Assembly (NCBI GenBank): GCA_902583685.1
Contig: CACHWO010000001.1
Coordinates: forward strand, 4,833 to 68,832
Direction: 5' to 3'
DNA: 64,000 nt
Source: an uncultured Pelagibacteraceae bacterium
Lineage (GTDB): Bacteria > Pseudomonadota > Alphaproteobacteria > Pelagibacterales > Pelagibacteraceae
In this document: piece by piece, positions 492 to 50,300 of the stretch
How positions within the stretch are numbered: the first letter of the stretch is position 1
Layout of the letters: every line of letters begins with the position of its first letter
The notes under the pieces: model-generated
Told to the model about the DNA's origin: nothing
The model's input: only the letters and a program-made list of their open reading frames with translations
Database searches by the model: none
Made by a program: the position numbers and the translations under genes

Positions 492-493
492 AT

Positions 494-519: not shown

Positions 520-530
520 AAAAAATCCCT

Positions 531-585: not shown

Positions 586-681
586 ATATACTAAATAGCC
601 ACAAACATGTCAATTTATTCAAATAAATTTATTATCATTATACAAATGAAGTGTCTTTTATTATAAGACATTAAAAATAAT

Positions 682-3364: not shown

Positions 3365-3367
3365 TAA

Positions 3368-4588: not shown

Positions 4589-4592
4589 AGTC

Positions 4593-4706
4593 CTAAGATA
4601 TTATAATATTATGGGTCAGTTTATCTGATTTATAAACAGGAGCTGATTTTTTCCCACAAGAAGTTAAAAATAAACACAATAATGAAATAAGGAATATTTT
4701 TTTCAT
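4593..4706 (-). CDS. small lipoprotein (37 aa), LptM/YifL-like
   Basis: Manual translation gives MKKIFLISLLCLFLTSCGKKSAPVYKSDKLTHNIIIS. It has a signal peptide and the lipobox L-T-S-C. The ATG overlaps the argH stop (ATGA), and the ORF ends 4 nt before the lysA start. It is too short for the ORF track. Confidence 0.55.
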   Translation of the reverse strand: MKKIFLISLLCLFLTSCGKKSAPVYKSDKLTHNIIIS

Positions 4707-6085: not shown

Positions 6086-6110
6086 TTTTTTCTATGTTAA
6101 ATCTATTTAT

Positions 6111-6767: not shown

Positions 6768-6838
6768 TAAGTTTATTTATTATACCCTGTAACAAAATTA
6801 TAACTTGATATTTTTTTTTTAACAAGTTAGCATTAAGA

Positions 6839-7408
6839 ATGATTATTTCTTCCACAGAAAAAGTACCTTTGGAAAAATGCCCTGCATTAGTTTTAAACGC
6901 AGATTTTAGACCTTTGAGTTACTACCCTTTATCATTGTGGTGTTGGCAAGATGCAGTCAAATCAGTTTTTTTAAATAGGGTTAGTATAGTTTCAACGTAT
7001 GAAAGAAAAATTCGTAGTCCATCATTTGAAATGAGTTTACCAAGTGTAATTGCATTAAAAAGTTTTATAAAACCTTCAGAGCACCCAAATTTTACAAGGT
7101 TCAATGTCTTTCTTAGAGATAAGTTTGCATGTCAATACTGTGGTGCAAAAAAAGACCTAACTTTTGACCATCTTCTTCCTAAATCCAAAGGAGGTATAAC
7201 GGACTGGGAAAACGTTGTAACCGCCTGCTCAACTTGTAATGTAAAAAAGGGTGGTAAATTATACAATAATTGTGATCTTAAATTAAAAAGAAAGCCTTTT
7301 GTTCCGACTGTAGACGATCTTCATAAAAACGGAAGAAATTTTCCTCCAAACTTTTTACATGAAAGTTGGATGGATTATCTGTATTGGGATATCGAGTTAG
7401 AACCTTAA
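6839..7408 (+). CDS. HNH endonuclease-domain protein
   Basis: 189 aa ORF with CQYCG..DHLLPKSKGG..WENVVTACSTCNVKKG, a zinc-binding HNH motif. Confidence 0.7.
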   Translation: MIISSTEKVPLEKCPALVLNADFRPLSYYPLSLWCWQDAVKSVFLNRVSIVSTYERKIRSPSFEMSLPSVIALKSFIKPSEHPNFTRFNVFLRDKFACQYCGAKKDLTFDHLLPKSKGGITDWENVVTACSTCNVKKGGKLYNNCDLKLKRKPFVPTVDDLHKNGRNFPPNFLHESWMDYLYWDIELEP

Positions 7409-7942
7409 TTAAATTTTTTCTGAAACTTTAATAGCTACTTTAGATGTTGTTTGTATAATTTTGTCTAAAACAGAGTACAATCCACTTTTAGTTGCTCCTT
7501 TATCATAAGCAATATTTTTGTGATCAATTTCATCTTGTCTAAACTTTGTAATAGATTTTTTTAACTTTTCTTCATCATCACCAAGTTTATCTAATTGGTT
7601 TTTATAATGATCATCTATAACTTCCTCTACAGATGCAGTACATAACATAGCTGCTTTTTCGCCTAAAATTGTAGTTCCAAAACCAAGAGTCACTCCGAGT
7701 AAATCCCAAATTGGAAGGAAAACTGTAGGTTTAATTTTTCTTCTCTGAATTTCCTTGTCAAAATATTCGAAATGTTCTCTCTCATGTTCTTTCATATCTT
7801 CAATCAGTTTTTTTAATTTTTCGTTTTTTTTAAAAGTATTTAATGCCAATAATTGACCTTCATAAATTTTGATTGCGCCTCTTTCTCCAGCGTGATCAAC
7901 TCTTATAATTTCTTCTAATGTTCTTTTATTTGTTGTTTTCAT
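7409..7942 (-). CDS. coq7: demethoxyubiquinone hydroxylase (COQ7 family di-iron protein)
   Basis: The ORF shows RVDHAGERGA and EHEREH..., with EExDH repeats typical of COQ7. I chose the internal Met (MKTTNK...), which reduces the overlap with dsbB. The track ORF extends to 7981. Confidence 0.7.
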   Translation of the reverse strand: MKTTNKRTLEEIIRVDHAGERGAIKIYEGQLLALNTFKKNEKLKKLIEDMKEHEREHFEYFDKEIQRRKIKPTVFLPIWDLLGVTLGFGTTILGEKAAMLCTASVEEVIDDHYKNQLDKLGDDEEKLKKSITKFRQDEIDHKNIAYDKGATKSGLYSVLDKIIQTTSKVAIKVSEKI

Positions 7943-8408
7943 ATTTTTTAAACATATTGAAGAATATACAGAATAATACAAATGAAAAAATGGTATTTAT
8001 TGAAGCAAGAGAAACACCAAAAATAGAAAAAGTCACCTCTTTACAACTAATAGTATTTTTTTTTAATTGTTTCAAAATATCCTCCTTAGATAATTCAGTA
8101 TTAAAACTTTTTGTTTCACATACGAAAGACTCATTAAAAAAACCTTGCTCAATACCAAAATGATAAAAAGCAATAATAGAACCACAAATTGATACTAAAG
8201 ATAGAATTAACAATGTAAGTCTTATGTATTTTTTTAAAAGAAAAATATTTAAAAGTAATATAAGTGAAATATAGTATGGATATCTTTGATAAATACAAAG
8301 TTTACATGGTTCATGACCTAAAGCGTATTCAATTATATAAGCAGAAAATAGTGAGAGTAGTAATAAAAAAAATATTATAAAAAGAGTTTTATTTCGCGTA
8401 CTACTCAT
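7926..8408 (-). CDS. dsbB: disulfide bond formation protein B family
   Basis: 160 aa ORF with about 4 TM segments. It has a CKLC redox pair in the first periplasmic loop and a second Cys pair (C..C) in the later loop. Confidence 0.6.
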   Translation of the reverse strand: MSSTRNKTLFIIFFLLLLSLFSAYIIEYALGHEPCKLCIYQRYPYYISLILLLNIFLLKKYIRLTLLILSLVSICGSIIAFYHFGIEQGFFNESFVCETKSFNTELSKEDILKQLKKNTISCKEVTFSIFGVSLASINTIFSFVLFCIFFNMFKKYENNK

Positions 8409-9005
8409 TTACTTTACCAAATAAAAAGTTAATGCTAAAATAATTAATATAAGAATAGTTATAATTACTGACCATTTTGTACCATGTTTTTCTAGAAAAG
8501 GCCCAAATTTGTCACCAAATTTGTAAGTTAAAAAAGCAACAACAAAGAATCTCGATCCACGAGTTATTAAACAAATAATTATAAAAAAAATCAGATTAAA
8601 ATTTATGAAACCACTTGATATAGTTAATAGTTTAAAAGGTAATGGTGTAAAACCGGCGGTAACAAGTATTCCAAGCCAAGAAAAAAAACCGCCTTTTGTA
8701 GAAAATTTTTCTTTAAGGAAATTTGGATCTTCATACCCGTATAGTTCAAATATTTTTATTCCAATCTCGTTAAAAAAAACATACCCAATTAAATATCCAA
8801 ATAATGCACCAAGCACTGAAAAAATTGTAGCAATTATTGCTATACGCAAAAATTCTCTTTTTTTTGCCACTACCATTGGAATAATCATTACATCGGGGGG
8901 AATTGGAAAAAAGGAACTTTCTATGAAAGACTCGAATGCCAAAATAGGTTTAGCATATTTATGACCAGCCCAAGAAACACATTTATCATATAATTTTTTA
9001 ATCAT
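8409..9005 (-). CDS. DedA/YqaA family inner membrane protein
   Basis: 198 aa multi-TM ORF with the ESSFFPIPPDVMIIPM motif typical of YqaA/DedA. The spacer to dsbB is 0 bp. Confidence 0.6.
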   Translation of the reverse strand: MIKKLYDKCVSWAGHKYAKPILAFESFIESSFFPIPPDVMIIPMVVAKKREFLRIAIIATIFSVLGALFGYLIGYVFFNEIGIKIFELYGYEDPNFLKEKFSTKGGFFSWLGILVTAGFTPLPFKLLTISSGFINFNLIFFIIICLITRGSRFFVVAFLTYKFGDKFGPFLEKHGTKWSVIITILILIILALTFYLVK

Positions 9006-9073
9006 TTTTTTTGTTGCGTCTTAAATTAATTCAAAACATAATGTTTGTAAAAATATAAATTATGATAGAAAAG

Positions 9074-9160
9074 GGGCGAATGGTGGAACTGGTAGACGCG
9101 TTGGATTCAAAATCCAATAGTAGCAATACTTTGAGAGTTCGAGTCTCTCTTCGCCCACCA
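9074..9160 (+). tRNA. tRNA-Leu (anticodon CAA)
   Basis: Folded by hand. The acceptor is GGGCGAA/TTCGCCC, the anticodon stem is TTGGA/TCCAA and the loop is TTCAAAA. It has a long variable arm, a T arm GAGAG-TTCGAGT-CTCTC, discriminator A and an encoded CCA. Confidence 0.85.
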
Positions 9161-9165
9161 AAAAA

Positions 9166-10848
9166 ATGAAATTGTCCGAAATAAATAGCTTGGTTGAACT
9201 GTATTTTAAAAAATCTGTCGAAGAGGATAAAAAAAAACCTTTTTTAAGATGGTTAAAGCCTGACAAACCCACTTATAATTGGCAACAAATAACAGATAGT
9301 ATTTATAAACTATCAAATAAAATTAAATCTTTAATAAACAAAGGTGACAGATGTTTGATCTTATCTGAGAACAGACCCTACTGGCTAATATCTGATATAT
9401 CTATAATGAATGCAGGGGGCATATCTGTTCCGATATTTACAACATACTCAGCTGACGACTACGAATATATTATTAAAGATTGTAAACCATCATTGATTAT
9501 TGTTTCAAATAACAATCAATTTAAAAAAGTAAAAAATTTTATTAATCACAATGAACAAAAAATAATATCATTCGAAAAAATTGAAGTAAAAAGTTTATTA
9601 ATAAAAGATATTTTAAATGAAAGACATTTTAAAAAGGAAATAAATACTAATTTGAAAAGAAATATGCCTGCATGCATAATTTATACCTCAGGCACCTCAG
9701 GTAATCCTAAAGGAGTTATTTTAAGTCACGGGGGAATTCTTGCAAATTGTGAAGGAGCTTTAGAAATATTAGATCCTTTAATAAAAAAAAAACAACCAGT
9801 ATTTTTAACATGGCTACCTCTTTCTCACTCATATGAACACGCTGTGCAGTTTATTCAAATTTTACTTGGGGCAAAAGTTTTTTATGCTGAAAACTTGGAG
9901 AAACTTTTATCAAATATGTCTATTGCTAAACCTACAATCATGACAGCTGTTCCAAGATTTTATCAAAATTTATATAATAAAATAAATTCAAATTTTAAAA
10001 AACAATTAGGTTTTAAAAAAAAACTAATTGATAAAACATTATATCTGGGAAAAAAGGTTTTAAAAAATGAACCACTAAAACCAGGTGAAAGAATATTAAA
10101 TTTTTTATGTCAAATTCTTGTAAGGAGAAAAATTCAAAAGCAATTTGGTGGAAATCTTCAGGCCTTTGTTTCAGGCGGAGGTGCACTTGATAAAAATGTT
10201 GGAGAGTTTTTAAATGCTGTTGGTTTGCCAACATTACAAGGGTATGGGTTAACAGAAACATCACCTGTAGTGAGTTGTAATATTCCTGGAAATATCAAAG
10301 TTGATACAGTTGGGCCACCTTTTAAAACAAATCAAGTTAAAATAGCAGATGATGGTGAAATATTAGTTAAAGGAGAAAATGTGATGTTAGGTTATTTAAA
10401 TAAAGAAAAAGAGACAAATGAAGTTATAAAAAATGGATGGTTACATACTGGTGATATAGGAGAAATAGACACAAATGGATATTTAAAAATTACCGACAGA
10501 AAAAAAGATATAATCGTTAATCATGGTGGAGATAATATTTCTCCAAGCAAAATTGAAAATATTATTTGTAATAACGAAAAAATAAAACAATGTTTAGTTT
10601 ATGGAGATAAAAAAAATTATTTAGTTGCATTAATTGTTGTAGATCAGAAAGATAAAAATTATACAACTATAGGAAGTATTATAGAAAGTTTTAACAAAAG
10701 TTTATCAATTATAGAAAAAATTAAAAAATTTAAAATAATTCATGACGAATTTACAATTGATAACGGTTTAATGACACCAACATTAAAACTGAAACGAAAA
10801 AAAATAATAGAAAAATATAAACAAGATTTAGAAAAACTTTATTTTTAA
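9166..10848 (+). CDS. long-chain acyl-CoA synthetase (AMP-forming)
   Basis: 560 aa ORF with the AMP-binding signature IIYTSGTSGNPKGV, plus GYGLTET and LHTGDIG..GYLKITDRKKD. Confidence 0.8.
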   Translation: MKLSEINSLVELYFKKSVEEDKKKPFLRWLKPDKPTYNWQQITDSIYKLSNKIKSLINKGDRCLILSENRPYWLISDISIMNAGGISVPIFTTYSADDYEYIIKDCKPSLIIVSNNNQFKKVKNFINHNEQKIISFEKIEVKSLLIKDILNERHFKKEINTNLKRNMPACIIYTSGTSGNPKGVILSHGGILANCEGALEILDPLIKKKQPVFLTWLPLSHSYEHAVQFIQILLGAKVFYAENLEKLLSNMSIAKPTIMTAVPRFYQNLYNKINSNFKKQLGFKKKLIDKTLYLGKKVLKNEPLKPGERILNFLCQILVRRKIQKQFGGNLQAFVSGGGALDKNVGEFLNAVGLPTLQGYGLTETSPVVSCNIPGNIKVDTVGPPFKTNQVKIADDGEILVKGENVMLGYLNKEKETNEVIKNGWLHTGDIGEIDTNGYLKITDRKKDIIVNHGGDNISPSKIENIICNNEKIKQCLVYGDKKNYLVALIVVDQKDKNYTTIGSIIESFNKSLSIIEKIKKFKIIHDEFTIDNGLMTPTLKLKRKKIIEKYKQDLEKLYF

Positions 10849-11053
10849 TGAATATTTTTTTATTTTATATCATTAATAAAAGTGTTGGTATTGCTCGTTA
10901 ATTTAATAACTTTTTCATTAAATGAATCTGAATAAATAAAATAAGTTTTTACAAAATTTTACAACAAATTTATGTTTGACATCTTTGTTAAAAAACTTAA
11001 ATATAAAATTATCAAACGAATCATTAAGATTTGTTATAAAAAGGGAGATAAAG

Positions 11054-11116
11054 ATGGCTAAAAGAAGAAAAAAGAAAAAGAAAAAAGCTAAGAAAAAAAG
11101 AAGAAGAAGAAGATAA
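11054..11116 (+). CDS. 20-aa polybasic micro-ORF (MAKRRKKKKKKAKKKRRRRR)
   Basis: A GGGAG Shine-Dalgarno at 11043-11047 lies 6 nt before the ATG. The ORF has 20 sense codons, 17 of them Lys/Arg, then TAA. A strong bidirectional hairpin terminator follows 9 nt downstream. No other + strand gene lies nearby. Confidence 0.45.
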   Translation: MAKRRKKKKKKAKKKRRRRR

Positions 11117-11124
11117 GTATATTT

Positions 11125-11164
11125 AAAAATCGCCCTTTCTATTTATTTGGAAAGGGCGATTTTT
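11125..11164. terminator. bidirectional intrinsic terminator shared by the micro-ORF (+) and carD (-)
   Basis: The sequence AAAAATCGCCCTTTC-(loop)-GAAAGGGCGATTTTT forms a stem of about 15 bp flanked by A5 and T5. It therefore reads as hairpin plus U-tract on both strands. Confidence 0.75.
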
Positions 11165-11810
11165 ATTCTACCTCTATATTTTGATTTCTACCTAATGCCT
11201 TATCCATTTTTTTTCCAGCATCGTCTGTAGACAATTTTAATACAACTTGAAATTCACTTTTTAGTCTATCATAAGCTTTCTCAAATAGTTGTCTCTCACT
11301 ATAAGACTGATCTGCAATAGCATTAGAATTTTTATTAAGATCTTTAACTACCTCTGCTAATTCATATATTTTTCCTGAATTTATCTTTTGCTCATATTCT
11401 TGAGAACGCCTACTCCACATTGTACGTTTTATTTTTGGCTTAGTTTTCAAAATTGAAAGACATTTATTAATTTGATTTGTAGAAGAAATATGTCTTAAAC
11501 TAGATTGCTGGTTTATCGGAATCGTTAAAGTTAACTTATCTTTTTCAATAAAAACTTTATAAAAATTAATATTAATATCTCCAATAACAGCTTTTTCAAT
11601 TGAGACTATTTTTCCTACCCCATGCTTTGGATAAACTACATACTCATTAACATTATAAATCCTTTTTTCAGAAGGTTGTTTCTTTATTTTTTTTATTATG
11701 ATTTTTTCATCCTGAGGGCTTTTCGATGTAAAGCTTTGTTTTTTTATAGGTTTGGATAGAATCTTTTTTTTATTTTTTTTTACTTTAGTTTTTTTAGTCT
11801 TTTTTCTCAT
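11163..11810 (-). CDS. carD: CarD/CdnL family RNA-polymerase-binding regulator with a polybasic N-terminal extension
   Basis: 215 aa ORF. The CarD core (YVVYPKHGVGKIVSIE...FYKV...) starts near residue 55. Residues 1-50 contain 22 Lys/Arg. Confidence 0.75.
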   Translation of the reverse strand: MRKKTKKTKVKKNKKKILSKPIKKQSFTSKSPQDEKIIIKKIKKQPSEKRIYNVNEYVVYPKHGVGKIVSIEKAVIGDININFYKVFIEKDKLTLTIPINQQSSLRHISSTNQINKCLSILKTKPKIKRTMWSRRSQEYEQKINSGKIYELAEVVKDLNKNSNAIADQSYSERQLFEKAYDRLKSEFQVVLKLSTDDAGKKMDKALGRNQNIEVE

Positions 11811-11816
11811 ATCAAA

Positions 11817-12158
11817 TTATTTTGCTCCGTTTTTAGAAAAATGTTTTTCAAATTTATCTTTTATATTTTTGTATTTATCATTTTCAGGATAAGGATCTTT
11901 TTTTTTAGTAATGTTTGGCCATATCTTAGAATATTTATCATTTACTTCTAACCATTTATTTTTATCTTCTTTATTATAATCTACATCTGATACAATTGCA
12001 TCAATCGGACATTCAGGTTCACAAACACCGCAATCTATACATTCGTCAGGATTAATTACAAGCATATTTTCACCTTCGTAAAAACAATTAACGGGACAAA
12101 CTTCAACACAATCAGTTAATTTGCATTTGATACATTCATCTTTAACAATATAGGTCAT
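11817..12158 (-). CDS. fdxA: 7Fe ferredoxin (3Fe-4S plus 4Fe-4S)
   Basis: 113 aa ORF with the CxxC..C..CP and [12 protein letters not shown] cluster motifs. Confidence 0.85.
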
Positions 12159-12162
12159 ATAT

Positions 12163-12582
12163 TTATTTATTTTTTAAAACTTTTAATTTTATTTCACCAA
12201 TTAATTTATCGGGAAGATAAAGTAAACCGCTAATTCGTCTCATTAAAGTAGCTTCATACATATCTGCTTTTTCATCTGATAAAATTATTTGCCATAATGT
12301 CTCGATTATTTTTTTTTTAAAATCTAAAGAATTTTTTTTTATTTCTTTTGTAAAATTTAAGATTTGATTTGAGTTTTGCTCTTCCTTCTCTGCTAGTTTT
12401 ATTATTTCATCTGAATTGATATTGGCATTTATTGAATTAAGAAAATTTTTTATTATATTCTTTTCCTTGTCAGAGTAATTTTCATCAATTTTTGCAGCGT
12501 ATATAAGTAAAGATGAAATTTTTATTAGGTCATCTTTTTTATTATTACTATCTTCAGTTTTATTGAAAATATCTTTTATCAT
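12163..12582 (-). CDS. TerB-family (tellurite-resistance-like) small protein
   Basis: 139 aa ORF with two helical repeats. It has D-x-x-Y-S-D-K-E and a C-terminal ..[21 protein letters not shown].. pattern, as in alphaproteobacterial TerB-family proteins. It has an ATGA overlap with the upstream helicase. Confidence 0.5.
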
Positions 12583-15050
12583 TTTAAACTTAAAGACTCC
12601 AATTTTTTAAAAGGGTTACGGTCACTTTTTAAAACTTTCTTAATTTTTTTAGTTTTTCTTTCTCCAATATAAACAAATGAATTTTCGACATTTTTTTTAT
12701 CCCTTTTATAATTCATAAGCAACATTAATTGAAAGAAATTTTCTTTTGTACATCCTAATAAATTTATCATGCTGGAATCTGTCTCAAATTTTCCATTTTT
12801 ACTCTTTTCTATTATTTTGATAAAAAGTTTTTCTAAAATATCCACTCTTATATAAAAATTCTTAAATTTTTCAAAACCACATAAAAGTAAGAAATTTCTG
12901 TCAAAATTACTTTTATCATCTTTCAAAAAGTTTAAGCCAGATTTAGGAATCTCACTATTTAATGAAATTCGATTAAAAAATTTCCAAAGTAAAATTCTTA
13001 ATTCAACAGCTTTTGGTTTAAGCATTTTTGGTAAGAAAACATGGTATCTGCCTACCTTTATTCCTAAAGATCTAAATTGTTTTCTTTCATCTTTTAAAAT
13101 ATTTTTAAGTATATCTTCAACCTGAAATCTTTTTAAAATACCGTTATTTTCGTAAAGCCTGAATGCAATAGCTCTTACATATCTATTTTTATTATCTTTA
13201 TTGGTTAAGTTAATTAAATCTTTCAATTCCTCAGATATATATGAGTTTAGCCACTCATTTAAATAAACAAAAAGATCTTTTTTTGCATTTTCTTCTAAAG
13301 CTTCATCGCTAATAATTTCTATTTCAGGACATAAGTAATTTTTACCTTTTTTTATTCTAGCAATGGGATTGTTATTCCACTCTATTTTAAATTCTTTATT
13401 AAGTTTAAGGTCTTCTGATTCTATAATAATTTTTACTCTTTTTTTTAACTCATCCTCAATACCTTGCTTAGCAGCTTTTTTCAGAGATTTTATGTCTGTT
13501 TCTAATGTCCCTTGCGTAAACTCTAAATTAAGTTTTAGACCCTTTAGTTTTCCAATTAGTTGATTATCAATAATTACCTCATCATTTTCATTAATATCTG
13601 TTCTTAGCTTAACATCTTGCTTGAGACCTCTAGACAAAACACTAATTCTTTTATCGATAAAACTCTTTGTCAATTCAATGTGTAACTTATCTGATAAACT
13701 ATCCTCAATATTTTTACTCGTTTGAATCCAATAATCTGCATTTTCTACCCAATTTTTTTTATTTGCTACATAAGACCATGTTCTAACATTTGAAATTTTA
13801 TTCGAGATCATATCTATATTACCTTTGTATTTATCCAAGCCTTTGAGCTGATTTTTCATATAATCGTTTGGAATTTTACTTTTTTTTGAATTTAGAAAAT
13901 TAAAAACTTTTGTGACTATTTCAATGTGAGTAAATGCTTTTTTTTGAAAATCTGGTATCTGACAACATTCCCATAATAAATTTAGTTTATTATTAGAAAA
14001 TTTTAGCTTTTGGTCACGAATTAAGTATTTTAATACATTTTCGTCTATTGAGTCGGACATTCTTAAAAATTTATTATTTGTTGTTTTCATTTCTAAAGAT
14101 TTAATCAATGTATCAGCGTTATTAAAATTGAGATCTGAATTTCTCCAGAACAAAAATTTAATATCATCAAGGTTATGACTTTCTATTCTTTCAATTTCGT
14201 CTGGAAGCAAATTTTCACAACCACCCGTAACACCAAAATATCCATCTGTCTTATATCTCCCAGCTCTACCCGCAATTTGTGAAATTTCCGTTGTCCTTAA
14301 TTTTCTTGTTTTTTTTCCGTCAAACTTTTTTAAACTAGAAAAACTAATTTGTTCAATATCCATATTTAAACCCATACCAATTGCGTCGGTAGCAACTAAA
14401 TAATCAACATCACCTGATTGATAAACTTCTACTTGAGAGTTTCTTGTTTTAGGACTCAATGATCCCATTATAACAGCAGCACCACCTTTTTGTCGTCTAA
14501 CCAGTTCAGCAATGGCGTAAATTTCTTCTACAGAAAATGCAATGAGTGCACTTTTTCTTTCTAATCTAGAAATTTTTTTATGCCCATTATACGAAAGTTT
14601 TGAAAATCTATTTTGCTCAACAAATTGAGTTTCTGGGATTATTTCAGATATTATATTTTTCATTATCTGAGATCCTAGAAACATTGTTAACGCTTCTCCC
14701 CTTGAATTTAAAAGTCTATCAGTAAATATATGCCCTCGCTCTCTGTCACCGCACATTTGTATTTCATCAATAGCAATAAAATCTACAACCATATCTTTTG
14801 GCATAGCTTCAACAGTACAAATGTAATATTGAGATGTATGTGGAATAATTTTTTCTTCACCAGTTATTAAAGCTACTTTTTCTGCACCAACTTTGCTAAC
14901 ACATTTATCGTATACTTCTCTAGCTAAAAGTCTTAGGGGAAAGCCAAATATTCCAGAATTAAACTCCATCATCTTTTCAATCGCAGTAAAGGTTTTTCCT
15001 GTGTTTGTAGGACCCAACACAGCAATTATTTTATTTTGAGAAGTATTCAT
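12579..15050 (-). CDS. Suv3-like superfamily 2 ATP-dependent RNA/DNA helicase
   Basis: 823 aa ORF with Walker A GPTNTGKT, Walker B DEIQM, a helicase C-terminal domain (TDAIGMGLN, QIAGRAGR) and a long C-terminal extension. Confidence 0.65.
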   Translation of the reverse strand: MNTSQNKIIAVLGPTNTGKTFTAIEKMMEFNSGIFGFPLRLLAREVYDKCVSKVGAEKVALITGEEKIIPHTSQYYICTVEAMPKDMVVDFIAIDEIQMCGDRERGHIFTDRLLNSRGEALTMFLGSQIMKNIISEIIPETQFVEQNRFSKLSYNGHKKISRLERKSALIAFSVEEIYAIAELVRRQKGGAAVIMGSLSPKTRNSQVEVYQSGDVDYLVATDAIGMGLNMDIEQISFSSLKKFDGKKTRKLRTTEISQIAGRAGRYKTDGYFGVTGGCENLLPDEIERIESHNLDDIKFLFWRNSDLNFNNADTLIKSLEMKTTNNKFLRMSDSIDENVLKYLIRDQKLKFSNNKLNLLWECCQIPDFQKKAFTHIEIVTKVFNFLNSKKSKIPNDYMKNQLKGLDKYKGNIDMISNKISNVRTWSYVANKKNWVENADYWIQTSKNIEDSLSDKLHIELTKSFIDKRISVLSRGLKQDVKLRTDINENDEVIIDNQLIGKLKGLKLNLEFTQGTLETDIKSLKKAAKQGIEDELKKRVKIIIESEDLKLNKEFKIEWNNNPIARIKKGKNYLCPEIEIISDEALEENAKKDLFVYLNEWLNSYISEELKDLINLTNKDNKNRYVRAIAFRLYENNGILKRFQVEDILKNILKDERKQFRSLGIKVGRYHVFLPKMLKPKAVELRILLWKFFNRISLNSEIPKSGLNFLKDDKSNFDRNFLLLCGFEKFKNFYIRVDILEKLFIKIIEKSKNGKFETDSSMINLLGCTKENFFQLMLLMNYKRDKKNVENSFVYIGERKTKKIKKVLKSDRNPFKKLESLSLK

Positions 15051-42636: not shown

Positions 42637-44444
42637 TGTCAGATATCAACAAAGTAAGAAATTTTGCGATTATCGCACATATTGATCATGGTAAATCGAC
42701 AATTGCTGATAGGATGATACAAATATGCGGAGGCTTGTCAGCAAGAGAGATGAAAGAGCAGGTTCTCGATTCAATGGAAATTGAAAGAGAAAGAGGGATT
42801 ACAATCAAAGCACAAACAGTAAAATTAAATTATAAATCTAAAGATGGGAAAGATTATATTCTAAATATAATAGACACTCCGGGCCATGTTGATTTTAGCT
42901 ATGAAGTAAGCCGTTCTCTTTTAGCTTGTGAAGGATCCGTTCTAATAGTTGATAGTTCACAAGGTGTTGAAGCTCAAACTTTAGCAAATGTATACCAGGC
43001 TATTGACTCAAATCACCAAATTATACCTGTTCTTAATAAAATTGATCTACCTGCATCTGATACAGAAAAGGTAAAAAAACAAATAGAGGATGTAATTGGT
43101 ATTGATACATCAAAAGCTATTTCGTGTTCTGGAAAAACTGGAGATGGTATTGATAGAATTCTTGAGTCAATCGTAAGTGATTTACCTGCTCCAGAAGGGA
43201 ATATAAATTCAAAGCTTAAAGCTCTATTAGTTGATAGCTGGTATGATAGCTACTTGGGTGTTGTAATCTTGGTAAGAATTATTGATGGAAAGATTAAAAA
43301 AGGAATGAAAATAAAATTAATGTCTACAAATCAAGATTATGATATTGAAAAAGTTGGTATTTTTACTCCAAAAGCTAAAGACATTGATGAATTGCGTGCA
43401 GGAGAAATAGGTTTCATTATAACAGGTATTAAAAGTTTGTCTGAAACAAAAGTTGGAGACACAATTTGTGACCCAAACAATACTTTAGAAAAACCACTAC
43501 CAGGATTTAAGCCCAGCAAACCAGTAGTATTTTGTGGTTTATTTCCTGTAGATAGTTCTGAATATCAAAAGCTTAAAGACGGTCTAGCTAAACTAAAGTT
43601 AAACGACTCAAGCTTTTCTTTTGAGCCAGAGTCATCTAGTGCGCTCGGATTAGGTTTTAGATGTGGATTTTTAGGTCTTTTGCATCTAGAAATTATAACG
43701 CAAAGACTTGAAAGAGAATTCGATATTAATTTAATCACAACAACTCCTGGTGTTGTTTATAAAGTTAATAAAATAAATAATGAGGTTGTTGATCTTCAAA
43801 ACCCAACAACAATGCCAGATCCGTCACAAATAAAATTTATTGAAGAACCATGGATAAAAGCAACAATTATTACCCCTGACGAGTTTCTTGGATCAATTAT
43901 AAAAATCTGTCAGGATAAAAGAGGTATCCAAAAAGATTTATCATATTCAGGTAATAGAGCCGTATTAGTTTACGAACTACCTTTAAATGAAGTAGTCTTC
44001 GATTTTTATGATAGACTAAAATCGATTACAAGTGGATATGCAAGTTTTGATTACGAGATAACAGGCTATAAAGAGGGTAATTTAGTTAAACTTGGTATTC
44101 TGGTTAATAATGAGTCAGTCGATGCATTATCAATGATTATTCACAAAGACTTTGCACAACAACAAGGAAGATTAGTTTGTGAGAAATTGAAGGATTTAAT
44201 TCCAAGACATAACTTCATGATTCCTATTCAAGCCGCAATTGGTGGAAAAATTATTGCTAGAGAGAGTATCAAGGGCTTTAAAAAAGATGTCTTGACTAAA
44301 ATACATGGCGGTGGTGCTCGTGACCGTAAAAGAAAATTATTAGAAAAGCAAAAAAAAGGTAAAGCTCGATCAAAACAGTTTGGAAGAGTTGAAATACCAC
44401 AAGAAGCTTTTATAGGTGTACTAAAAATAAACAAAGAAACATAA
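42636..44444 (+). CDS. lepA: elongation factor 4
   Basis: 602 aa ORF with GTPase motifs [14 protein letters not shown] and NKID, plus the LepA C-terminal domain. It has a TAATG overlap with pheT. Confidence 0.95.
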
Positions 44445-45469
44445 TGCAAAACAAACTTTTCATAATATCTAACGAGAAGATTTTTGGATCAGATGGAAAT
44501 TTTTTTTGTGATAATCTTGATATGAAATCAACCCCAGAGGGGCTAAAAAAAAATTTTGATATTCATATTTTAGGCAGGAACTCTAGAAAAACTAGATCAC
44601 ACAAAATAAATATAAAAAAAGTTACTTTAAGTAAAACATTTTTTAGTTATATGTATTCAATTTTTAAATCCTTTAAAGAAAAGGAAATGAAATATTTAAT
44701 AATTTCAATATCTCCATTTACATTCTTTGCATGTATTTTACTCGCTATTTTTAAAAAGAAATCAATGACTTATTTAAGAAGTGATGGATATAATGAATAC
44801 AAAAATATCTTAGGTTTTGTTGGTCCTACTATCTACCATATTATGTTTTCTATTGTTTCAAAAACCTCAATCTTTATTGGTTGCAATAAAGAAGTTCTAA
44901 AAGGACGAAAGGGAAAAATAATTTATCCATCACAATTAACTGATAAATGGTTTTTAAATCAATCATCTCCAGAGTTTAATAAAATTAAATTGTTGTATGT
45001 TGGTAGAGTAAAAGTAGAAAAAGGGGTTTATTCTTTACTAAAAATAATTAAAAATTTTAAAATAGATATTTCATTATCGATTGTTGGTGCAGAAAAAGAT
45101 AGTATAAACAGTATTAAACAAGAAAATGTAAATATTTATGGAATTGAGACGTCAGAAAATAAATTAATTGAACTTTATGATACCCACAATATATTTATTC
45201 TTCCCTCATTAACTGAAGGACACCCTATGGTTATACTAGAGTCTTTAGCGCGTTTTAGACCAGTAATTATATTCGAGGAAATCAGTCATGTTGTAGGAAA
45301 TAAAAAAGGCATTTTTATAGCCAAAAGAAATTCAGTAAGTCTCCAAGACAAGATTGAATATATAATGATCAATTACAGCAAAATAAAAGAGGATATGAAA
45401 AAAAATAATTTATCCTTAAAAAAGGATTTTTTAAAAGAATTTGAGAATTCAATTCTAAATTTTAATTAG
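44444..45469 (+). CDS. glycosyltransferase (GT4-like, GT-B fold)
   Basis: 341 aa ORF with C-terminal [23 protein letters not shown]. It has a TAATG overlap with lepA, and the last base of its stop codon is base 1 of tRNA-Ser. Confidence 0.55.
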
Positions 45470-45558
45470 GAGAGGTGGCCGAGTGGTTGAAGGCGCACGC
45501 TTGGAAAGTGTGTAAACGGGAAACCGTTTCGTGGGTTCGAATCCCACTCTCTCCGCCA
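45469..45558 (+). tRNA. tRNA-Ser (anticodon GGA)
   Basis: Folded by hand. The acceptor is GGAGAGG/TCTCTCC (one G-U). The anticodon stem is CACGC/GTGTG and the loop is TTGGAAA. The long variable arm is AAACGG-GAAA-CCGTTT, the T arm is GTGGG-TTCGAAT-CCCAC, the discriminator is G and CCA is encoded. Confidence 0.9.
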
Positions 45559-45571
45559 TTTTAAAAAATGA

Positions 45572-46492
45572 TTACTTTGTTACCACTAGTCGATTGATTG
45601 GTATTGAAAAACGTCCTTGTCTCTGGAGATCTCGACTCTCTTTTGATATTGCTAGAAGATTAGATAGCTCAGAAAGCATTATCCTGCGAGCCTCTGTTGG
45701 TAAGATGAACGAAGCATAAAAAAAACCTGCAGCAGTCTCGGCCACTTCAGTAACTGGTCCTTCCATAGATACCACGCTAGTTTCTATATTCACTTTAGCA
45801 TCTGGAAAAGCCTCATGTAAAAGATTTTTTGATGTATCTGTGCTACGTATTCTTGGATCACCTAAATCAATCTCACCATATTTAGGTATTTTTGCTTGCG
45901 CAAATCGATAGATTAAATTGTGTACATCGCTATATTTCGGCGCTGCTTTCATTGGTCCATCGACCAATGCTGCAAATCTACCACCTGAGGAAAGTACACG
46001 ATTGACTTCATCTAAAACTGGAGTAATTGGGTTCATAAGAGTTAAAGCCCAATGGCAAAGAACAACATCTATTGAATTATCATCGACTGCTGTTAAATTT
46101 TGTGCTTTTAATTCAAATAGATCAACTACACCGTCTGGTAAACGAGCTTTAGCAAGAGCTAATTCTTCAGGACACATATCAACTCCTTTTAATATAAAGT
46201 TTTTATTACGGTCGCATAAAATTTTTAATAACGGTCCGGATCCACAAGCGAGATCAAGCACACGGATACCGTTAGTGTTAGGCACAATTTCAGCTAACCA
46301 TTCATAACTATTACGTCCAGCCTTATCACGACAGATACTTGGGCACTTTTCAGTGAAACCTGCATAATTTTTATGCACACTTCTTAGATGAGCAAGAAGT
46401 GCTTTCCCATCCGGCTGTTGATTTCTAGCAAGATTTTCAGTCCAGGTAGAGTTAATAACCAACTGATTATTTATATTTTTATTTGTCATCAA
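45572..46492 (-). CDS. class I SAM-dependent methyltransferase (substrate unknown)
   Basis: 306 aa ORF with motif I VLDLACGSGPL, the post-I acidic residue in GVDMC, and SGGRFAALV (motif III-like). It overlaps the upstream PhyH gene by 14 nt. Confidence 0.7.
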   Translation of the reverse strand: MMTNKNINNQLVINSTWTENLARNQQPDGKALLAHLRSVHKNYAGFTEKCPSICRDKAGRNSYEWLAEIVPNTNGIRVLDLACGSGPLLKILCDRNKNFILKGVDMCPEELALAKARLPDGVVDLFELKAQNLTAVDDNSIDVVLCHWALTLMNPITPVLDEVNRVLSSGGRFAALVDGPMKAAPKYSDVHNLIYRFAQAKIPKYGEIDLGDPRIRSTDTSKNLLHEAFPDAKVNIETSVVSMEGPVTEVAETAAGFFYASFILPTEARRIMLSELSNLLAISKESRDLQRQGRFSIPINRLVVTK

Positions 46493-47474
46493 CTGGCCAA
46501 CAAATTGGATTTAGTGGACTGGCAGCAACATCACCAGGTTTTATATTTGGCATGAATTTTTGCCAGTCACCAGAAACCATTGTAGGATTGTTTATCACCC
46601 GTGCTCCATCTCTAAAATAAGTATTAGCTAAAGCTACTCGGCTACGATTAGTTCGATTCCTTGATGCAGTATGAAAATTTAAATTGTGATGAAAGCTAAC
46701 TTCACCCAACTCGAATGCAGTTTCATTTACTGTGACACTATTTTTTTTAAAAATTTCAGACACACCACGGTCATAGCCAGTACCGGTTTTTTCAAAAGTA
46801 ACAGCGTTAACTAATTTATGAACGTCTAATGGGTAAGCGAAAGATAGCGGCCCCATCTCAATTGGGGTTGGTTGTGCTGGCACCCAAGCAGTAACTACAT
46901 CATTAGTGTCTAATGGAAAATGATGGTCGTCAAAATGCCATGGCGTTCTACCACATCCAGATTGTTTTGCTAAAACATTGTCATGGTAAAGTCTAACTGC
47001 TGACACTCCAAGTAGATCTGCAGAAATTTGTCCAAGACGTGGTGACAATACGTATGCACGTAGAATCGTGTTTTTAGGCCAGATCATTTCAAGACTAAGG
47101 AACCGGTCATGTGCTTCTTTATCAGGATTAACATCAAATTCTTTTTTTAAAAGGTTGATTAACTCAGTTCTTAGTTTAAGTACTGCCCCTGGAGAGAAAA
47201 CTTTTTTAAGTTTAATAAAACCATTTTTTCTAAAAAAATTAATTTGGTCATTTTTCAAAGGATAAGTCTCAGCCAGTTCAGAGACAACCTCATCATCAGT
47301 CGGGATTACAACATCTGGTAAAGGTTCAGCAGTTATTATTGGATCCTTTTTATTTTCATTATCTGCTAGACCAACATACCAGTCCCACCATGCTTGATTA
47401 TCTTTATCCCAAGGCTTACTGATATCGGTGGGATCAGATTTCTTAGAATTTAATTTATCTCGAGACGCTCTCAT
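46479..47474 (-). CDS. phytanoyl-CoA dioxygenase (PhyH) family Fe(II)/2-oxoglutarate oxygenase
   Basis: 331 aa ORF with a PhyH-like start of domain (QINFFRKNGFIKLKKVFSP), an HxD facial-triad candidate WHFDDHH and a distal His in FHHNLNFH, then R..S. An N-terminal extension of about 70 aa has no recognisable motif. Confidence 0.65.
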   Translation of the reverse strand: MRASRDKLNSKKSDPTDISKPWDKDNQAWWDWYVGLADNENKKDPIITAEPLPDVVIPTDDEVVSELAETYPLKNDQINFFRKNGFIKLKKVFSPGAVLKLRTELINLLKKEFDVNPDKEAHDRFLSLEMIWPKNTILRAYVLSPRLGQISADLLGVSAVRLYHDNVLAKQSGCGRTPWHFDDHHFPLDTNDVVTAWVPAQPTPIEMGPLSFAYPLDVHKLVNAVTFEKTGTGYDRGVSEIFKKNSVTVNETAFELGEVSFHHNLNFHTASRNRTNRSRVALANTYFRDGARVINNPTMVSGDWQKFMPNIKPGDVAASPLNPICWPVDDK

Positions 47475-47592
47475 GAAAAAATTATACTATTTTTTTTGCT
47501 ATTAGTAAGTGCGCATTTTTAAGCATCGAAACAAGACCGTTTGTGGACAAAGTACTTCTATAAAACTGGTTTTTACCTTATTATTTGTAATA

Positions 47593-47682
47593 TTTGAGAT
47601 GGCCGAGTGGTTGAAGGTGCACACTTGTAAAGTGTGTAAACGGGGAACCGTTTCGTGGGTTCGAATCCCACTCTCTCCGCCA
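47593..47682 (+). pseudogene. degenerate tRNA-Ser-derived copy (anticodon position reads GTA; acceptor 5' strand destroyed)
   Basis: It is colinear with 45469-45558 and has the same 90-nt length, with 8 substitutions. Positions 1-3 are TTT instead of GGA, so 3 acceptor pairs are lost. The last 37 nt, including CCA, are identical. Confidence 0.7.
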
Positions 47683-47747
47683 TTATCAAGGATTTTATTA
47701 GCTTTTTTAAAATTGATATTAATTTTATCTTTAATAAATTACTTAAA

Positions 47748-49484
47748 ATGTATTTAAAGCTAGTTTTATTTTTTTTTAGTTTTTTATTATCTTCCCAAAT
47801 TGTCTTAGCTGATAGTGCAACACTCAATAATGGTGGCACATACACTAGTCAACAAGATATTGATGATGACAATGAATTTTTAACTGTTACAAATAATTCA
47901 ACCTTAAATACTAGCGCAACAAAACCTGCAAACATTACGGGAGACACTGTAAGTGTTACTGTTGACTCTGGTTCCACAATAACATCAAATACAGTCAGTA
48001 TTTTCGCAGACGATACTTCTGATTTAACAATTTCAAATTCTGGCACAATCAACTCAAGTGGAATAGTAGCAATTGATGTTAAAGGAACAACCGATGCAAG
48101 CATCACAAATAACTCTGGTGGTAAGATTTCTGCAACCAGAAATACATTAAGAATTAGTAAATCGGATAGTAACAGTACTACAGGCTTGACAATTACCAAC
48201 TCTGGAACAATTGAAGCAACAGACGCTGGTTCTGCAATTTTTGCAGCTGATTCTAATACTGCAGCTACAGTAACAAATAATTCAAGTGGTATTATGACAA
48301 ATTCTGATAGTAGTAACGCAACCATAAGAGTTGGCGCAAGTTCTTCAGTTACCAATAGCGGAACAATAAAAAATGATGTTGGAAACGATGCTATCAAATT
48401 GTACGGAAACAATTCTACAATTACTTTAAAAGATAAAGGTATAATAGTTGGAAAATTAGACGCTCTTTTAAGAACTGGAAGCACCTTAAAAATTAATCAT
48501 GGAGCTGGTCAATCTTATTTTTATGAAACTGAAGGTGATTTCACGTTAAAAGATCTTGATGGTAACCAAGTTGTCAAAGGATCGGCGGGATCAGCAGGTC
48601 AAGGAGGAAGTGAGACGTTAGATGAACTTTTAAGTTATAAATCTCTAAACATAAGACAATTTTTAAAAAGGTACAAAGACTCAGAAAATTTATATGATGG
48701 TAATGGTTGGGGAGAAACTTATTCCACTCTTTTAAATCGAAAAGGACATGCTGCAAATTTGGCTTTAGAGTACGATTTATTAAATGTGGGAGCTAATTTA
48801 ATTTCACCTTTAGAAAATTCAGATTTTATTCTTGCTTTTGAAACTGGAATTCAAGATTTTGATGCAGATCATAAAATAACATATCAAAATGTTTCTAGTG
48901 GATTGTATCTTCCAAGCAATAAATATCTTTTAAACTTAGACTCTTTTATTTTGGGTGGAATTACTTTAAAAAATGGAGAGAGAACTATACTAACGAATAC
49001 CACGTCTTCAGGTAAGTTAGACTTAGACAGTAATTATCAAACCTTTGAAGTACATTCCGGTATTACTAAAACTAACACTAAACTTTTGCCAAATTTAGGT
49101 TTAACTGGAAGTTTTTCTATCACCCCAAGCTATGATGAGAGCAAATATTATTCTTGGAGAAATAGAAAAGTAGGTAATGTTTCTATGTTTTTTAGTGATA
49201 AGTATAATATTATAAGTAATGACAATAATAATTTTAATCTAGGCTGGTTGTTAGATTTTAGAAATTTGGTAGGAGACAAATCACAAGTTTATTCAATTAA
49301 TGGCACAAGCGCTACGTACAAACAAGATAATGCTCTTACAAGAGAGATTTCATTAGTTGCTAATTTAGGTTACGAAAAGAAGATTACAGATAATGGAAAA
49401 TTTACAGCTGGCATTTCTGCAAAAAATACTAATCAGGATGTTAAAAGCTTTATTGGAAATTTAGGATTTAAACTAAACTTTTAG
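47748..49484 (+). CDS. autotransporter-like outer membrane protein (signal peptide, repeat passenger, C-terminal beta-barrel)
   Basis: I set the start at the internal Met (MYLKLVLFFFSFLLSSQIVLA/DS signal peptide), because the first 31 codons of the track ORF are tRNA-derived. The passenger has about 8 repeats of x-(V/I)-T-N-(N)-S-G-x-I. The C-terminal half shows an alternating beta-strand pattern and ends in GFKLNF, a terminal aromatic. Confidence 0.6.
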   Translation: MYLKLVLFFFSFLLSSQIVLADSATLNNGGTYTSQQDIDDDNEFLTVTNNSTLNTSATKPANITGDTVSVTVDSGSTITSNTVSIFADDTSDLTISNSGTINSSGIVAIDVKGTTDASITNNSGGKISATRNTLRISKSDSNSTTGLTITNSGTIEATDAGSAIFAADSNTAATVTNNSSGIMTNSDSSNATIRVGASSSVTNSGTIKNDVGNDAIKLYGNNSTITLKDKGIIVGKLDALLRTGSTLKINHGAGQSYFYETEGDFTLKDLDGNQVVKGSAGSAGQGGSETLDELLSYKSLNIRQFLKRYKDSENLYDGNGWGETYSTLLNRKGHAANLALEYDLLNVGANLISPLENSDFILAFETGIQDFDADHKITYQNVSSGLYLPSNKYLLNLDSFILGGITLKNGERTILTNTTSSGKLDLDSNYQTFEVHSGITKTNTKLLPNLGLTGSFSITPSYDESKYYSWRNRKVGNVSMFFSDKYNIISNDNNNFNLGWLLDFRNLVGDKSQVYSINGTSATYKQDNALTREISLVANLGYEKKITDNGKFTAGISAKNTNQDVKSFIGNLGFKLNF

Positions 49485-49508
49485 TTTAGATTGGTCGCCA
49501 TTGTTTGT

Positions 49509-50300
49509 TTAATGATTTTTTTTGAAAAGAGTACTTAAAATATTAATATTGTTTATAATTCTGTTCTTTTTAATAAATATTTTTTTACTTTTGAAAATAT
49601 AATTTAAAATTTTTAATACAGTCCACATTTTACTTTTATTAAAAAATATATTTTCTGAATAGAAATTTTGAAAAAGACCAGTTTCTCTTAATGGTTTAAA
49701 TATATCGGTAGTTTTGTTATATTCAAAAAATAAAAATTTTCCCCGTGTTTTTTTTTGAAATGTTCTAATTAACTTTTTATGAGATGTAAAAAAAAAAATT
49801 TTATATTTTGAACTATACAAATTATATTTGATTTTTCCGTAAAATTTGAGTTTAAAAAAGTCAATTAATGTTCCAATGTATCTAGATCTTTTCTGGGCTT
49901 TGTAGTGTTTTTTAAATTCATTTGGTAATACTATGTCTCTATCGCCCATATTTCTGAAGAAAATGATGTAAAAAATTTCATATTCATGCAAAATTTTTTC
50001 AAACATGCTTTTTGTTTCTTGATTAGATAGTACTAGGCTAAAGTCTTCAGAACTTAATAAAATTATTTTTTTATTTTTTATTTCAGCTTTAAATTCTTCA
50101 ATTTTATTATTTAAATTTTGTCTTGCATCACCATAAATATACCATGCTAACTCAGCATGATTAATTAAAGTGTTATCATTAATTCTGAAAGTCTCTGGTA
50201 TGTATGCTAAAGCGTTTTTTTCGTTTTTTTTTAAGGCCCCTTGTATAGAAGTTGAGCCGGTTTTGTGCAAACCAACATGAACTAAAGCAATTTTTTTCAT
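49509..50300 (-). CDS. sulfotransferase-like P-loop protein (hypothetical)
   Basis: 263 aa ORF. The N-terminal VGLHKTGSTSIQ resembles the 5'-PSB loop of sulfotransferase-family proteins. The rest is low-complexity, Lys/Phe-rich. Confidence 0.35.
   Translation of the reverse strand: MKKIALVHVGLHKTGSTSIQGALKKNEKNALAYIPETFRINDNTLINHAELAWYIYGDARQNLNNKIEEFKAEIKNKKIILLSSEDFSLVLSNQETKSMFEKILHEYEIFYIIFFRNMGDRDIVLPNEFKKHYKAQKRSRYIGTLIDFFKLKFYGKIKYNLYSSKYKIFFFTSHKKLIRTFQKKTRGKFLFFEYNKTTDIFKPLRETGLFQNFYSENIFFNKSKMWTVLKILNYIFKSKKIFIKKNRIINNINILSTLFKKNH

Follow-up and report, generated by a model that had tools for sequence, protein, structure and literature searches.

The SAR11 bacteria are the most abundant bacterial lineage of the surface ocean and were long thought to be without mobile DNA. 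In Prochlorococcus, islands retain cargo and partial tRNA repeats that tycheposons have left. Here we analyze a 64,000-nucleotide (nt) stretch of an uncultured Pelagibacteraceae genome (contig CACHWO010000001.1, positions 4,833 to 68,832; "the window"), in which a tRNA-Ser(GGA) gene and a degenerate copy of it, called copy B, bracket the genes for an S-adenosylmethionine (SAM)-dependent methyltransferase (MT) and a PhyH-family dioxygenase (PhyH). A first-pass annotation had described this segment as a recently acquired or decaying island in a lineage with almost no mobile DNA; in view of two studies (PMC11876622 and PMC11796062), that picture of the lineage is outdated. Molina-Pardines et al. 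(PMC11796062; Microbiome 2025), who treat a Mediterranean SAR11 genomospecies, report seven islands that border tRNA genes, find no canonical mobile elements, and already describe SAR11 island cassettes that lack an integrase and are delimited by partial repeats of a tRNA. Biller et al. (PMC11876622; Nat Commun 2025) count 585 recombinase-associated mobilized Pelagibacter regions, often near tRNAs, and PMC10872708 describes both tycheposons and additive islands marked by repeated tRNA ends in other streamlined plankton. Temperate pelagiphages have attachment (att) sites mapped in tRNA-Cys, tRNA-Leu, and tRNA-Arg, with cores of 11 to 46 bp (bioRxiv 10.1101/410191).

The window locus is a new, well-documented case of these already described tRNA-bordered SAR11 islands. 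Like the additive flexible islands of PMC11796062, it occupies an equivalent position beside a tRNA gene and lacks canonical mobile-element genes: the tRNA at its border recurs as a partial repeat, with an identity of 94% (above 90%) along 87 nt, and this repeat bounds a cassette site that holds different cassettes in different strains, and no integrase or other recombinase was found. It differs from those islands in that its repeat is nearly full length (tRNA positions 4 to 90) and in that its cassette, unlike those variable islands, is present in every contig sampled from its lineage. We consider it probable that the islet goes back to an old Campbell-type insertion into tRNA-Ser(GGA), likely catalyzed in trans, that every sampled contig of the lineage carries, at a hotspot that is still active.

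The upstream end of the islet (Table 1) is an intact tRNA gene, since ARAGORN predicts it, it matches the full Rfam tRNA model (55.7 bits), and it folds at minimum energy into a cloverleaf (-37.6 kcal/mol). Its sequence is 100% identical in L302-L311, L095, and L122 (L numbers designate the contigs and loci compared). Copy B, at the downstream end, is colinear with this gene, is identical to it at 82 of 90 positions, and shares its last 37 nt (tRNA positions 54 to 90, CCA included) without change, and alignment thereby bore out the count given in the first-pass annotation. The homology, at 47596-47682, corresponds to tRNA positions 4 to 90 in the same orientation, so that a direct repeat reaching the tRNA 3' end lies at the far end of the insert. 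When tRNA-Ser was aligned locally to the whole window, copy B scored 149 against a background maximum of 21 to 25, and the 25-nt 3' end of the tRNA occurred exactly twice, where shuffles expect no occurrence. The window's two remaining tRNAs, tRNA-Leu(CAA) and tRNA-Arg(ACG), have no partial copies in it. The eight mismatches comprise positions 1 to 3 (GGA to TTT) and the substitutions G7A, C26T, G31A, G36T (which turns the anticodon from GGA into GTA), and A53G. A7 is a natural allele, present in L091, L110, and L111, and T26 and A31 also occur in a decayed remnant in L140. The tRNA and its direct repeat are a true scar of insertion, as originally proposed, and mark a hotspot of integration into a tRNA gene; only MT and PhyH, overlapping and co-oriented as the first-pass annotation had seen, lie between them.

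ARAGORN reported four tRNA genes in the window, among them tRNA-Ser(GGA) and a "tRNA-Tyr(GTA)" at 47595-47682, which is copy B. The Rfam match of copy B is only local (model positions 4 to 67, 41.9 bits), its acceptor stem has 4 of 7 pairs left, with the TTT of positions 1 to 3 opposite the CCT of the 3' strand, and its minimum-energy fold lacks an acceptor stem. Because of these three defects, copy B reads as a dead pseudo-tRNA derived from tRNA-Ser, and its tRNA-Tyr identity was rejected as an ARAGORN artefact on the strength of the broken acceptor stem and the merely local Rfam match. Automated annotation would probably add this call, which should stay out of gene annotation.

Insertions at the same tRNA were found as near-isogenic occupied and empty pairs in sister genomes for two other cassettes, though not for MT-PhyH. 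Relative to L313, to which they are 98.7 to 99.9% identical, L312 and L316 carry an extra 465-bp insert with one 102-amino-acid (aa) open reading frame (ORF) directly after the tRNA, and this insert is followed by a second copy of tRNA positions 22 to 90 (a 70-nt duplication). The distal partial copy has the variable-arm allele and downstream flank of the uninserted genome, while the functional tRNA joins the host 5' part to a swapped variable-arm allele; in L312, the crossover falls within positions 22 to 46, a 25-nt identity block. Such a pattern is predicted if the tRNA on the chromosome undergoes one crossover with a circular molecule that bears a tRNA-Ser segment. Likewise, L307 differs from L302 (99.6 to 99.8% identical) by an 818-bp insert with one 194-aa ORF and a duplication of positions 25 to 90 (68 nt). 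Three more distant genomes (L037, L043, and L045) have islets of 0.4 to 1.6 kb with partial copies that begin at positions 11, 17, and 62. Given the L312/L316 and L307 insertions and these three further islets, tRNA-Ser(GGA) is an active insertion hotspot in present-day SAR11 populations, and new cassettes enter adjacent to the tRNA, displacing older ones outward. The before-and-after pairs, which come from natural populations, show target duplication and, in one case, tRNA allele exchange as well. The locus is a well-resolved example of how the flexible genome of SAR11 is built, with very small cassettes slotted into a tRNA gene, and the L312/L313 and L307/L302 pairs make testable which enzyme, if any, moves cassettes that have no integrase.

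In the mechanism that we favor, the segment would be a resident cassette of a SAR11 genomic-island hotspot on tRNA-Ser(GGA) after pheST-lepA. A circular DNA with the MT-PhyH operon and a stretch of tRNA-Ser would have recombined with the chromosomal tRNA in a Campbell-type crossover, such that the upstream copy would stay functional by joining the host 5' part to an element-derived 3' part. Copy B would then be the displaced hybrid, which would start at position 4, where homology with the element began, and run into the 3' end and flank that the host had before the event. Most likely, an element with an integrase, since gone, provided a tyrosine recombinase in trans as the catalyst. The insertion would be old, with the cassette in every sampled contig of the lineage, synonymous sites adapted to SAR11, and a G+C content that may derive from strongly conserved protein sequence.

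Classical integration by a tyrosine integrase resembles the locus in that an intact tRNA stands at one end and a direct repeat reaching the CCA at the other, in the target duplications of L312 and L307, and in an incoming allele taking the place of the tRNA 3' part (the exchange seen in L312/L316). It differs from the locus in that no integrase gene beside an att site and no element backbone were found there, in that the inserts measure 0.47 to 2 kb and hold one or two genes, and in that the duplicated length is heterogeneous, up to 87 of 90 nt. A simple local duplication of the tRNA was considered and rejected, since in both L302 (remnant) and L312 (partial copy) the variable-arm allele is unlike that of the adjacent functional tRNA.

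To place the locus among relatives, we searched species-representative genomes with LepA and recovered ~45 Pelagibacteraceae loci (LepA 76 to 84% identical), all of which have pheS-pheT-lepA followed after 0 to 8 kb by tRNA-Ser(GGA). Their genes vary both beyond the tRNA and in the interval from lepA to it, so that the same position holds different genes, and MT-PhyH was absent at tRNA-Ser(GGA) from 31 of 31 such distant loci with enough downstream sequence. Contigs of close relatives were chosen solely by a LepA 100% or 93% identical to that of the window. Here, tRNA-Ser-MT-PhyH was found in 23 of 23 informative contigs, namely, 4/4 of the same species (L292, L293, L294, and L296, which may include the window's own source, since L293 is 99.99% identical), 10/10 of a first sister group, and 9/9 of a second, with the proviso that metagenome contigs can be chimeric. 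Six more same-species contigs (L295 and L297-L301) end inside or just after the tRNA (window positions 45508-45578). The 87-nt repeat probably explains these breaks at tRNA-Ser in 6 of 10 same-species contigs; strain variation downstream would also fit.

Traces of the bracket persist more widely. An alignment of the tRNA with the 300-nt stretch preceding PhyH, made for 80 other loci alongside shuffled sequences, gave significant tRNA-Ser remnants, oriented as direct repeats, in at least 14 loci (L090, L092-L095, L097, L102, L113, L136, L140, L144, L166, L168, and L170; 0/200 shuffles reached the score), where PhyH identity is about 79 to 92%. The remnants range from 10 to 30 nt of the 3' end up to nearly full-length, heavily mutated copies, the long ones including L113 (positions 10 to 90) and L170 (positions 30 to 90) as well as L144 and L140. 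In the first sister group, the remnant measures 34 nt (positions 57 to 90), and the end of its variable arm differs from that of the adjacent functional tRNA (L302). Because remnants occur in at least 14 diverse loci, the bracket is an old and widely inherited feature, of which the window has the best-preserved copy; copy B itself is present in the same-species contigs L293 and L294 and is unchanged between contigs that are 97% identical overall.

The MT gene at the tRNA-Ser(GGA) site is 69 to 97% identical to that of the window (L091, L094, L099, L110, L122, and L302-L320), and the adjacent PhyH is 86 to 93% identical. This mosaic suggests that the tRNA-proximal half of the cassette may have been replaced repeatedly.

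The neighborhood of copy B is also subject to change. L292, which is otherwise 99.83% identical to the window, lacks window positions 47653-49497 (1,845 bp), comprising the last 30 nt of copy B and the whole of the next gene, orf609; its junction (14961-15030) shows the microhomology CCGTT/CCATT, and its copy B is cut to positions 4 to 60. Because the missing piece begins exactly where the tRNA homology would be completed, the difference is a deletion in L292 rather than an insertion in the window. Homologues of orf609 (38 to 90% identity) lie between the tRNA and MT in L102-L104 and L107, so that the two modules occur in both orders, which suggests either that cassettes are reshuffled by excision and reentry at the tRNA or that gene conversion refreshes copy B. 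A comparison of the copy B flank with the flank of the functional tRNA in L104, which bears on whether tRNA and orf609 were ancestrally adjacent, found the two too diverged. No further partial tRNA-Ser repeats that would mark additional cassette boundaries were found after orf609 or orf263.

Several observations weigh against the old Campbell-type insertion that we favor. The best-preserved repeat brackets the universally conserved cassette, and the polymorphic orf609 lies beyond it; simple accretion would therefore need to be supplemented by reshuffling, gene conversion of copy B, or a second event. No empty site for MT-PhyH, of the kind that the first-pass annotation had envisaged across SAR11, was found among the 23 informative close relatives (lepA 93 to 100%), so that its own insertion was not observed directly, and the loci without the pair are the 31 distant representatives. 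The partial copies start at tRNA positions 4, 10, 11, 17, 22, 25, 57, and 62, which is too heterogeneous for one integrase family. A possible fragment of a still older remnant, whose status is unproven, lies between PhyH and copy B (local alignment score 17, shuffle P = 0.038) and aligns positionally with the remnants of L092, L095, and L097; the proposed mechanism leaves it unexplained. Finally, a motif regular-expression screen followed by phmmer/hmmsearch against 1,947 ORFs from the window and ~170 SAR11 loci, with the integrases of HTVC019P, HTVC011P, lambda (Int), E. coli (XerC), and the viral contig L331 and the primase of L331 as queries, yielded no integrase or primase match. As a positive control, XerC detected the L331 integrase (E = 2e-6). 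The statement in the first-pass annotation that the window has no integrase, excisionase, or transposase holds for the first class, in that the window gave no tyrosine recombinase; the screen did not extend to excisionases or transposases.

L331 (IMGVR_UViG_3300025769_000061, 1-14158) is a circular 14-kb contig of a viral collection, with 31% G+C and a 127-nt terminal overlap. It carries genes for a tyrosine integrase and an AEP primase with DUF5906 (primase-helicase), a tRNA-Arg(ACG), and a row of genes for small secreted proteins, among them one that shares 39% identity with the ORF carried by the L312 islet. This layout of integrase, primase-helicase, tRNA, and cargo array on a circular molecule is generally tycheposon-like. 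L331 offers a lead in support of delivery in trans, its link to the tRNA-Ser islets being the one cargo homologue at 39%. Four of its cargo genes are preceded by a conserved 38-nt motif (TAGACTCAACGTTCAGGATTTG...), and two 62-nt repeats flank the last cargo gene. The window locus shares with tycheposons (cited in PMC10872708 and PMC11876622) the targeting of a tRNA, the carriage of cargo, and a streamlined marine host. It differs from them in having no tycheposon-type recombinase or replication module, and no SAR11 locus examined gave an integrase or primase match, even with the L331 queries; membership in that group therefore cannot be claimed.

A broader reading, which we put forward tentatively as possible though doubtful, is that SAR11 maintains an integron-like cassette system with a tRNA gene as the attachment site, in which cassettes of 0.5 to 2 kb with one or two genes would each carry a piece of tRNA-Ser and be moved by a recombinase in trans or, with host recombination, by none. 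On population time scales, such cassettes would shift to the first position, pass from one lineage or tRNA-Ser isoacceptor to another, and be shortened by deletions, and the well-preserved copy B beside a conserved cassette would then reflect recent excision and reinsertion of an old cassette. Integron cassettes are alike in being single promoter-less or self-promoted genes inserted one by one at a fixed chromosomal site, in arrays that are reshuffled and trimmed by a recombinase encoded outside the cassette. They differ in that the SAR11 locus has no IntI, attI, or attC and uses a tRNA fragment as its repeat unit, so that the likeness is an analogy only.

The main rival reading, which is unlikely, is that integrases play no part at all, with cassettes looping out through the repeats and being reinserted by host recombination at the tRNA-Ser of another cell after uptake or transduction, the conserved tRNA serving as an anchor of homology that travels with them, and with gene conversion keeping copy B similar. 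That no recombinase was found in ~170 loci and that the duplications begin at many tRNA positions would fit such a process, as would the L312 crossover somewhere in its 25-nt identity block, the contrast within copy B between 37 identical nt at the 3' end and 4 to 5 changes in the 50 nt at the 5' end, and the range of MT identities relative to PhyH, which suggests homologous replacement anchored on the tRNA and PhyH. In contrast, 66 to 87 nt are short for efficient RecA-dependent insertion, and L331 shows that an integrase-bearing circular element with a tRNA and related cargo exists in low-GC marine bacteria. The duplications of L312 and L307 start just 5' of the anticodon stem, which we take to be the classical position of an integrase identity block and which also counts against this alternative. 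So do the recombinase-associated mobilized Pelagibacter regions counted in PMC11876622.

The original proposal, in which a temperate pelagiphage or a similar element with an integrase recently brought in a foreign island that is now decaying, is in our view very improbable. Its starting points are sound, in that the direct-repeat scar is real, pelagiphages do integrate into SAR11 tRNA genes, and the composition of the islet stands out. The G+C content of MT (0.378) and PhyH (0.376) is the highest of the 44 genes of at least 150 aa in the window (gene mean, 0.294; standard deviation [SD], 0.038; window mean, 0.297), as had been seen by eye; the 2-kb segment 45501-47500 ranks 2/125 in tetranucleotide distance (z = 2.65), and the likelihood of synonymous codons is low for MT (z = -2.9, the least typical gene) and PhyH (z = -1.9). 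This moderate k-mer and codon-usage deviation is real. The excess of G+C sits in codon positions 1 and 2, the first-position values (0.516 for MT and 0.512 for PhyH) being the highest of the window, whereas third-position G+C (GC3; 0.225 and 0.235) lies within the native range, with a mean of 0.184 (SD, 0.030) and several core genes similar or higher. In three other SAR11 contexts, the pair likewise has a G+C content of 0.34 to 0.41, against 0.29 to 0.33 in its surroundings. Because the same excess recurs wherever the pair occurs in SAR11, raised G+C appears to be a property of the gene family that reflects amino-acid composition rather than a property of the insertion, and the SAR11 copies seem adapted to their host at synonymous sites. 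The label of foreign composition is not supported, and raised G+C together with a tRNA repeat does not equate to recent foreign DNA at this locus.

The word "decaying" fits the distal copy, but "recent" is not supported, in view of the occupation of 23/23 relatives selected by lepA, including lineages with a lepA identity of 93%, and of the decayed remnants in diverse lineages. The same genes with duplicated tRNA sequence in relatives are largely the pattern that the first-pass annotation itself had named as fatal to its proposal.

The pelagiphage link fared no better. HTVC019P-type temperate pelagiphages integrate into SAR11 tRNA genes and can rebuild the tRNA with a phage-derived part, but their genomes measure ~40 kb, their mapped att sites lie in the other tRNA genes named above and none in tRNA-Ser, and their integrases had no match in the related loci. 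Nucleotide scans of viral collections used exact matches only, and those of IMG/VR with a 31-mer specific to copy B and a 35-mer from the 3' end of SAR11 tRNA-Ser gave 0 hits. Scans with the 28-nt 3' end and an anticodon-arm pattern found only full tRNA genes, which belong to tRNA arrays of large phages or to contigs of GC-rich non-SAR11 hosts; two low-GC viral tRNA-Ser(GGA) matches were just 66 to 67 of 90 positions identical. PhyH and the cargo ORF of L307 had no relative in IMG/VR, and a BLAST search of copy B against GenBank phages returned only generic full tRNA-Ser genes at no more than 81% identity. With no phage genes between the repeats, and with copy B, the 3' half of SAR11 tRNA-Ser, and PhyH all unmatched in viral collections, an origin as a prophage or pelagiphage remnant was rejected.

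It is scarcely credible that copy B is instead a functional or regulatory RNA under selection (a divergent tRNA or a tRNA-like processing or terminator element), since against its ARAGORN call, its Rfam score above the gathering score, the 4 of 5 substitutions after position 3 that keep or improve pairing or fall in a loop, and its constancy among same-species contigs stand the structural defects described above, a serine-type body with a tyrosine anticodon that would mistranslate if charged, the loss of its 3' end (positions 59 to 90) by deletion in the same-species contig L292, and the heavy decay of orthologous copies in other lineages.

The bracketed operon runs on the minus strand, with an 11-nt overlap between PhyH and MT. 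[quoted passage not shown] MT matches Methyltransf_11 (E = 2.5e-15) and also Methyltransf_25 and Methyltransf_31; it has 1,688 homologues, with identity up to 97%. PhyH has 4,398 homologues, and the PhyH-MT pair is very common in marine data. The solved structures in PDB nearest to PhyH, SnoK (E = 3e-12) and SnoN (E = 5e-9), are anthracycline-tailoring enzymes and distant relatives. A search for NCBIfam equivalogs of the operon proteins found none, with none specific above cutoff for MT. From these families, the operon may encode a dioxygenase and a methyltransferase that tailor a small molecule by hydroxylation and methylation. The block just upstream of PhyH is conserved upstream of PhyH in L081, L083, L089-L091, and 13 further loci; its promoter role is putative, and a consensus promoter scan did not single it out.

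The PhyH-MT pair occurs in at least three SAR11 contexts. In another SAR11 lineage (L083-L088 and L112, e.g., L083 6063-8072), it abuts tRNA-Ser(GCT) at the 3' end, again tail to tail, the MT stop being 15 nt from the CCA end; there the pair is flanked by a lytic transglycosylase gene and by matE-gatCAB, with no detectable distal tRNA remnant. Other SAR11 contexts lie away from tRNA genes, and the pair is sometimes followed by an EgtD-like Methyltransf_33 gene. This distribution indicates a cassette that is mobile across SAR11 contexts. No partial repeats of tRNA-Ser(GCT) or tRNA-Met were found around the pair at these other sites. On the contigs with a tRNA-Met(CAT) gene (L115 6520-7737, L116 4800-6053, and L118 7150-8367), a 37-nt direct repeat of tRNA positions 41 to 77 lies ~1.1 kb downstream of that gene and brackets another small SAR11 islet with it; this islet is unrelated to the PhyH-MT pair, which lies ~1 kb upstream of the tRNA on the same contigs.

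Outside SAR11, homologues were found in GC-rich Alphaproteobacteria (L326-L330; 62 to 67% G+C; L326 and L327 labeled Salibaculum), with a GC3 of 0.80 to 0.83 and 75 to 77% amino-acid identity to PhyH, whereas LepA of comparable GC-rich taxa is only 64 to 67% identical; the pair therefore crossed between orders at some time. In these genomes, it belongs to a larger cluster of EgtD-like Methyltransf_33, PhyH, Methyltransf_23, and UbiE-type methyltransferase genes, with homocysteine S-methyltransferase (L326/L327) or an SSF transporter (L328-L330) as neighbor. In L328/L329, the cluster has a DUF6538/Phage_integrase gene on one side, and its other side is flanked by a tRNA-Ala gene together with two genes for transposases.

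Table 1. Features of the tRNA-Ser(GGA) locus in the window and single-ORF insertions in sister genomes
Feature	Position	Strand	Evidence
Group-1 glycosyltransferase in the variable lepA-tRNA-Ser slot	44444..45469	+	Glycos_transf_1, E = 2.4e-17; GC 0.249
tRNA-Ser(GGA), functional; recombination target; attL-type end	45469..45558	+	ARAGORN; Rfam; fold
Stretch between tRNA-Ser and MT: TTTTAAAAAATGATTAC			
MT, class I SAM-dependent methyltransferase, 305 aa; operon gene 2	45572..46489	-	Pfam
PhyH-family Fe(II)/2-oxoglutarate dioxygenase, 331 aa; operon gene 1	46479..47474	-	PF05721, E = 9.5e-13
Promoter-like block of the PhyH-MT operon (-10 TATAAT, -35 TTACTA)	47478..47520	-	Conservation
Possible older tRNA-Ser remnant fragment (ACCGTTT-GTGG; tRNA positions 54-66)	47536..47546	+	Marginal
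Pseudo-tRNA-Ser (copy B); attR-type end	47593..47682	+	Alignment; Rfam; fold
Sequence leading into orf609 on the downstream side of copy B: TTATCAAGG			
orf609, 578 aa from ATG; signal-peptide-like N-terminus	47748..49484	+	No family match
orf263, variable; separates the islet from the conserved NlpC-MFS-TrkH block	49509..50300	-	GC 0.225
Single-ORF insertions in sister genomes	L312 8899-9433; L316 4041-4575; L307 8264-9149		

The glycosyltransferase upstream of the tRNA is context and lies outside the bracketed islet. It is absent in both sister groups, where the tRNA follows lepA after 3 to 4 nt. A second variable slot is thus formed by the lepA-tRNA-Ser interval, which is empty (3 to 10 nt) in many SAR11 genomes, including both sister groups, and holds a carbamoyltransferase gene and a 75-aa ORF in L091 and up to 8 kb of other genes elsewhere; the slot showed no flanking repeats. 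Downstream of the islet, Pfam and NCBIfam scans of orf609 and orf263 gave no match. A GTG-start ORF at 47655-49484 overlaps copy B, and the ATG at 47748 is the likelier start of orf609. In L294, L302, and L089/L090, orf263 is absent, and other genes or nothing stand at its position.

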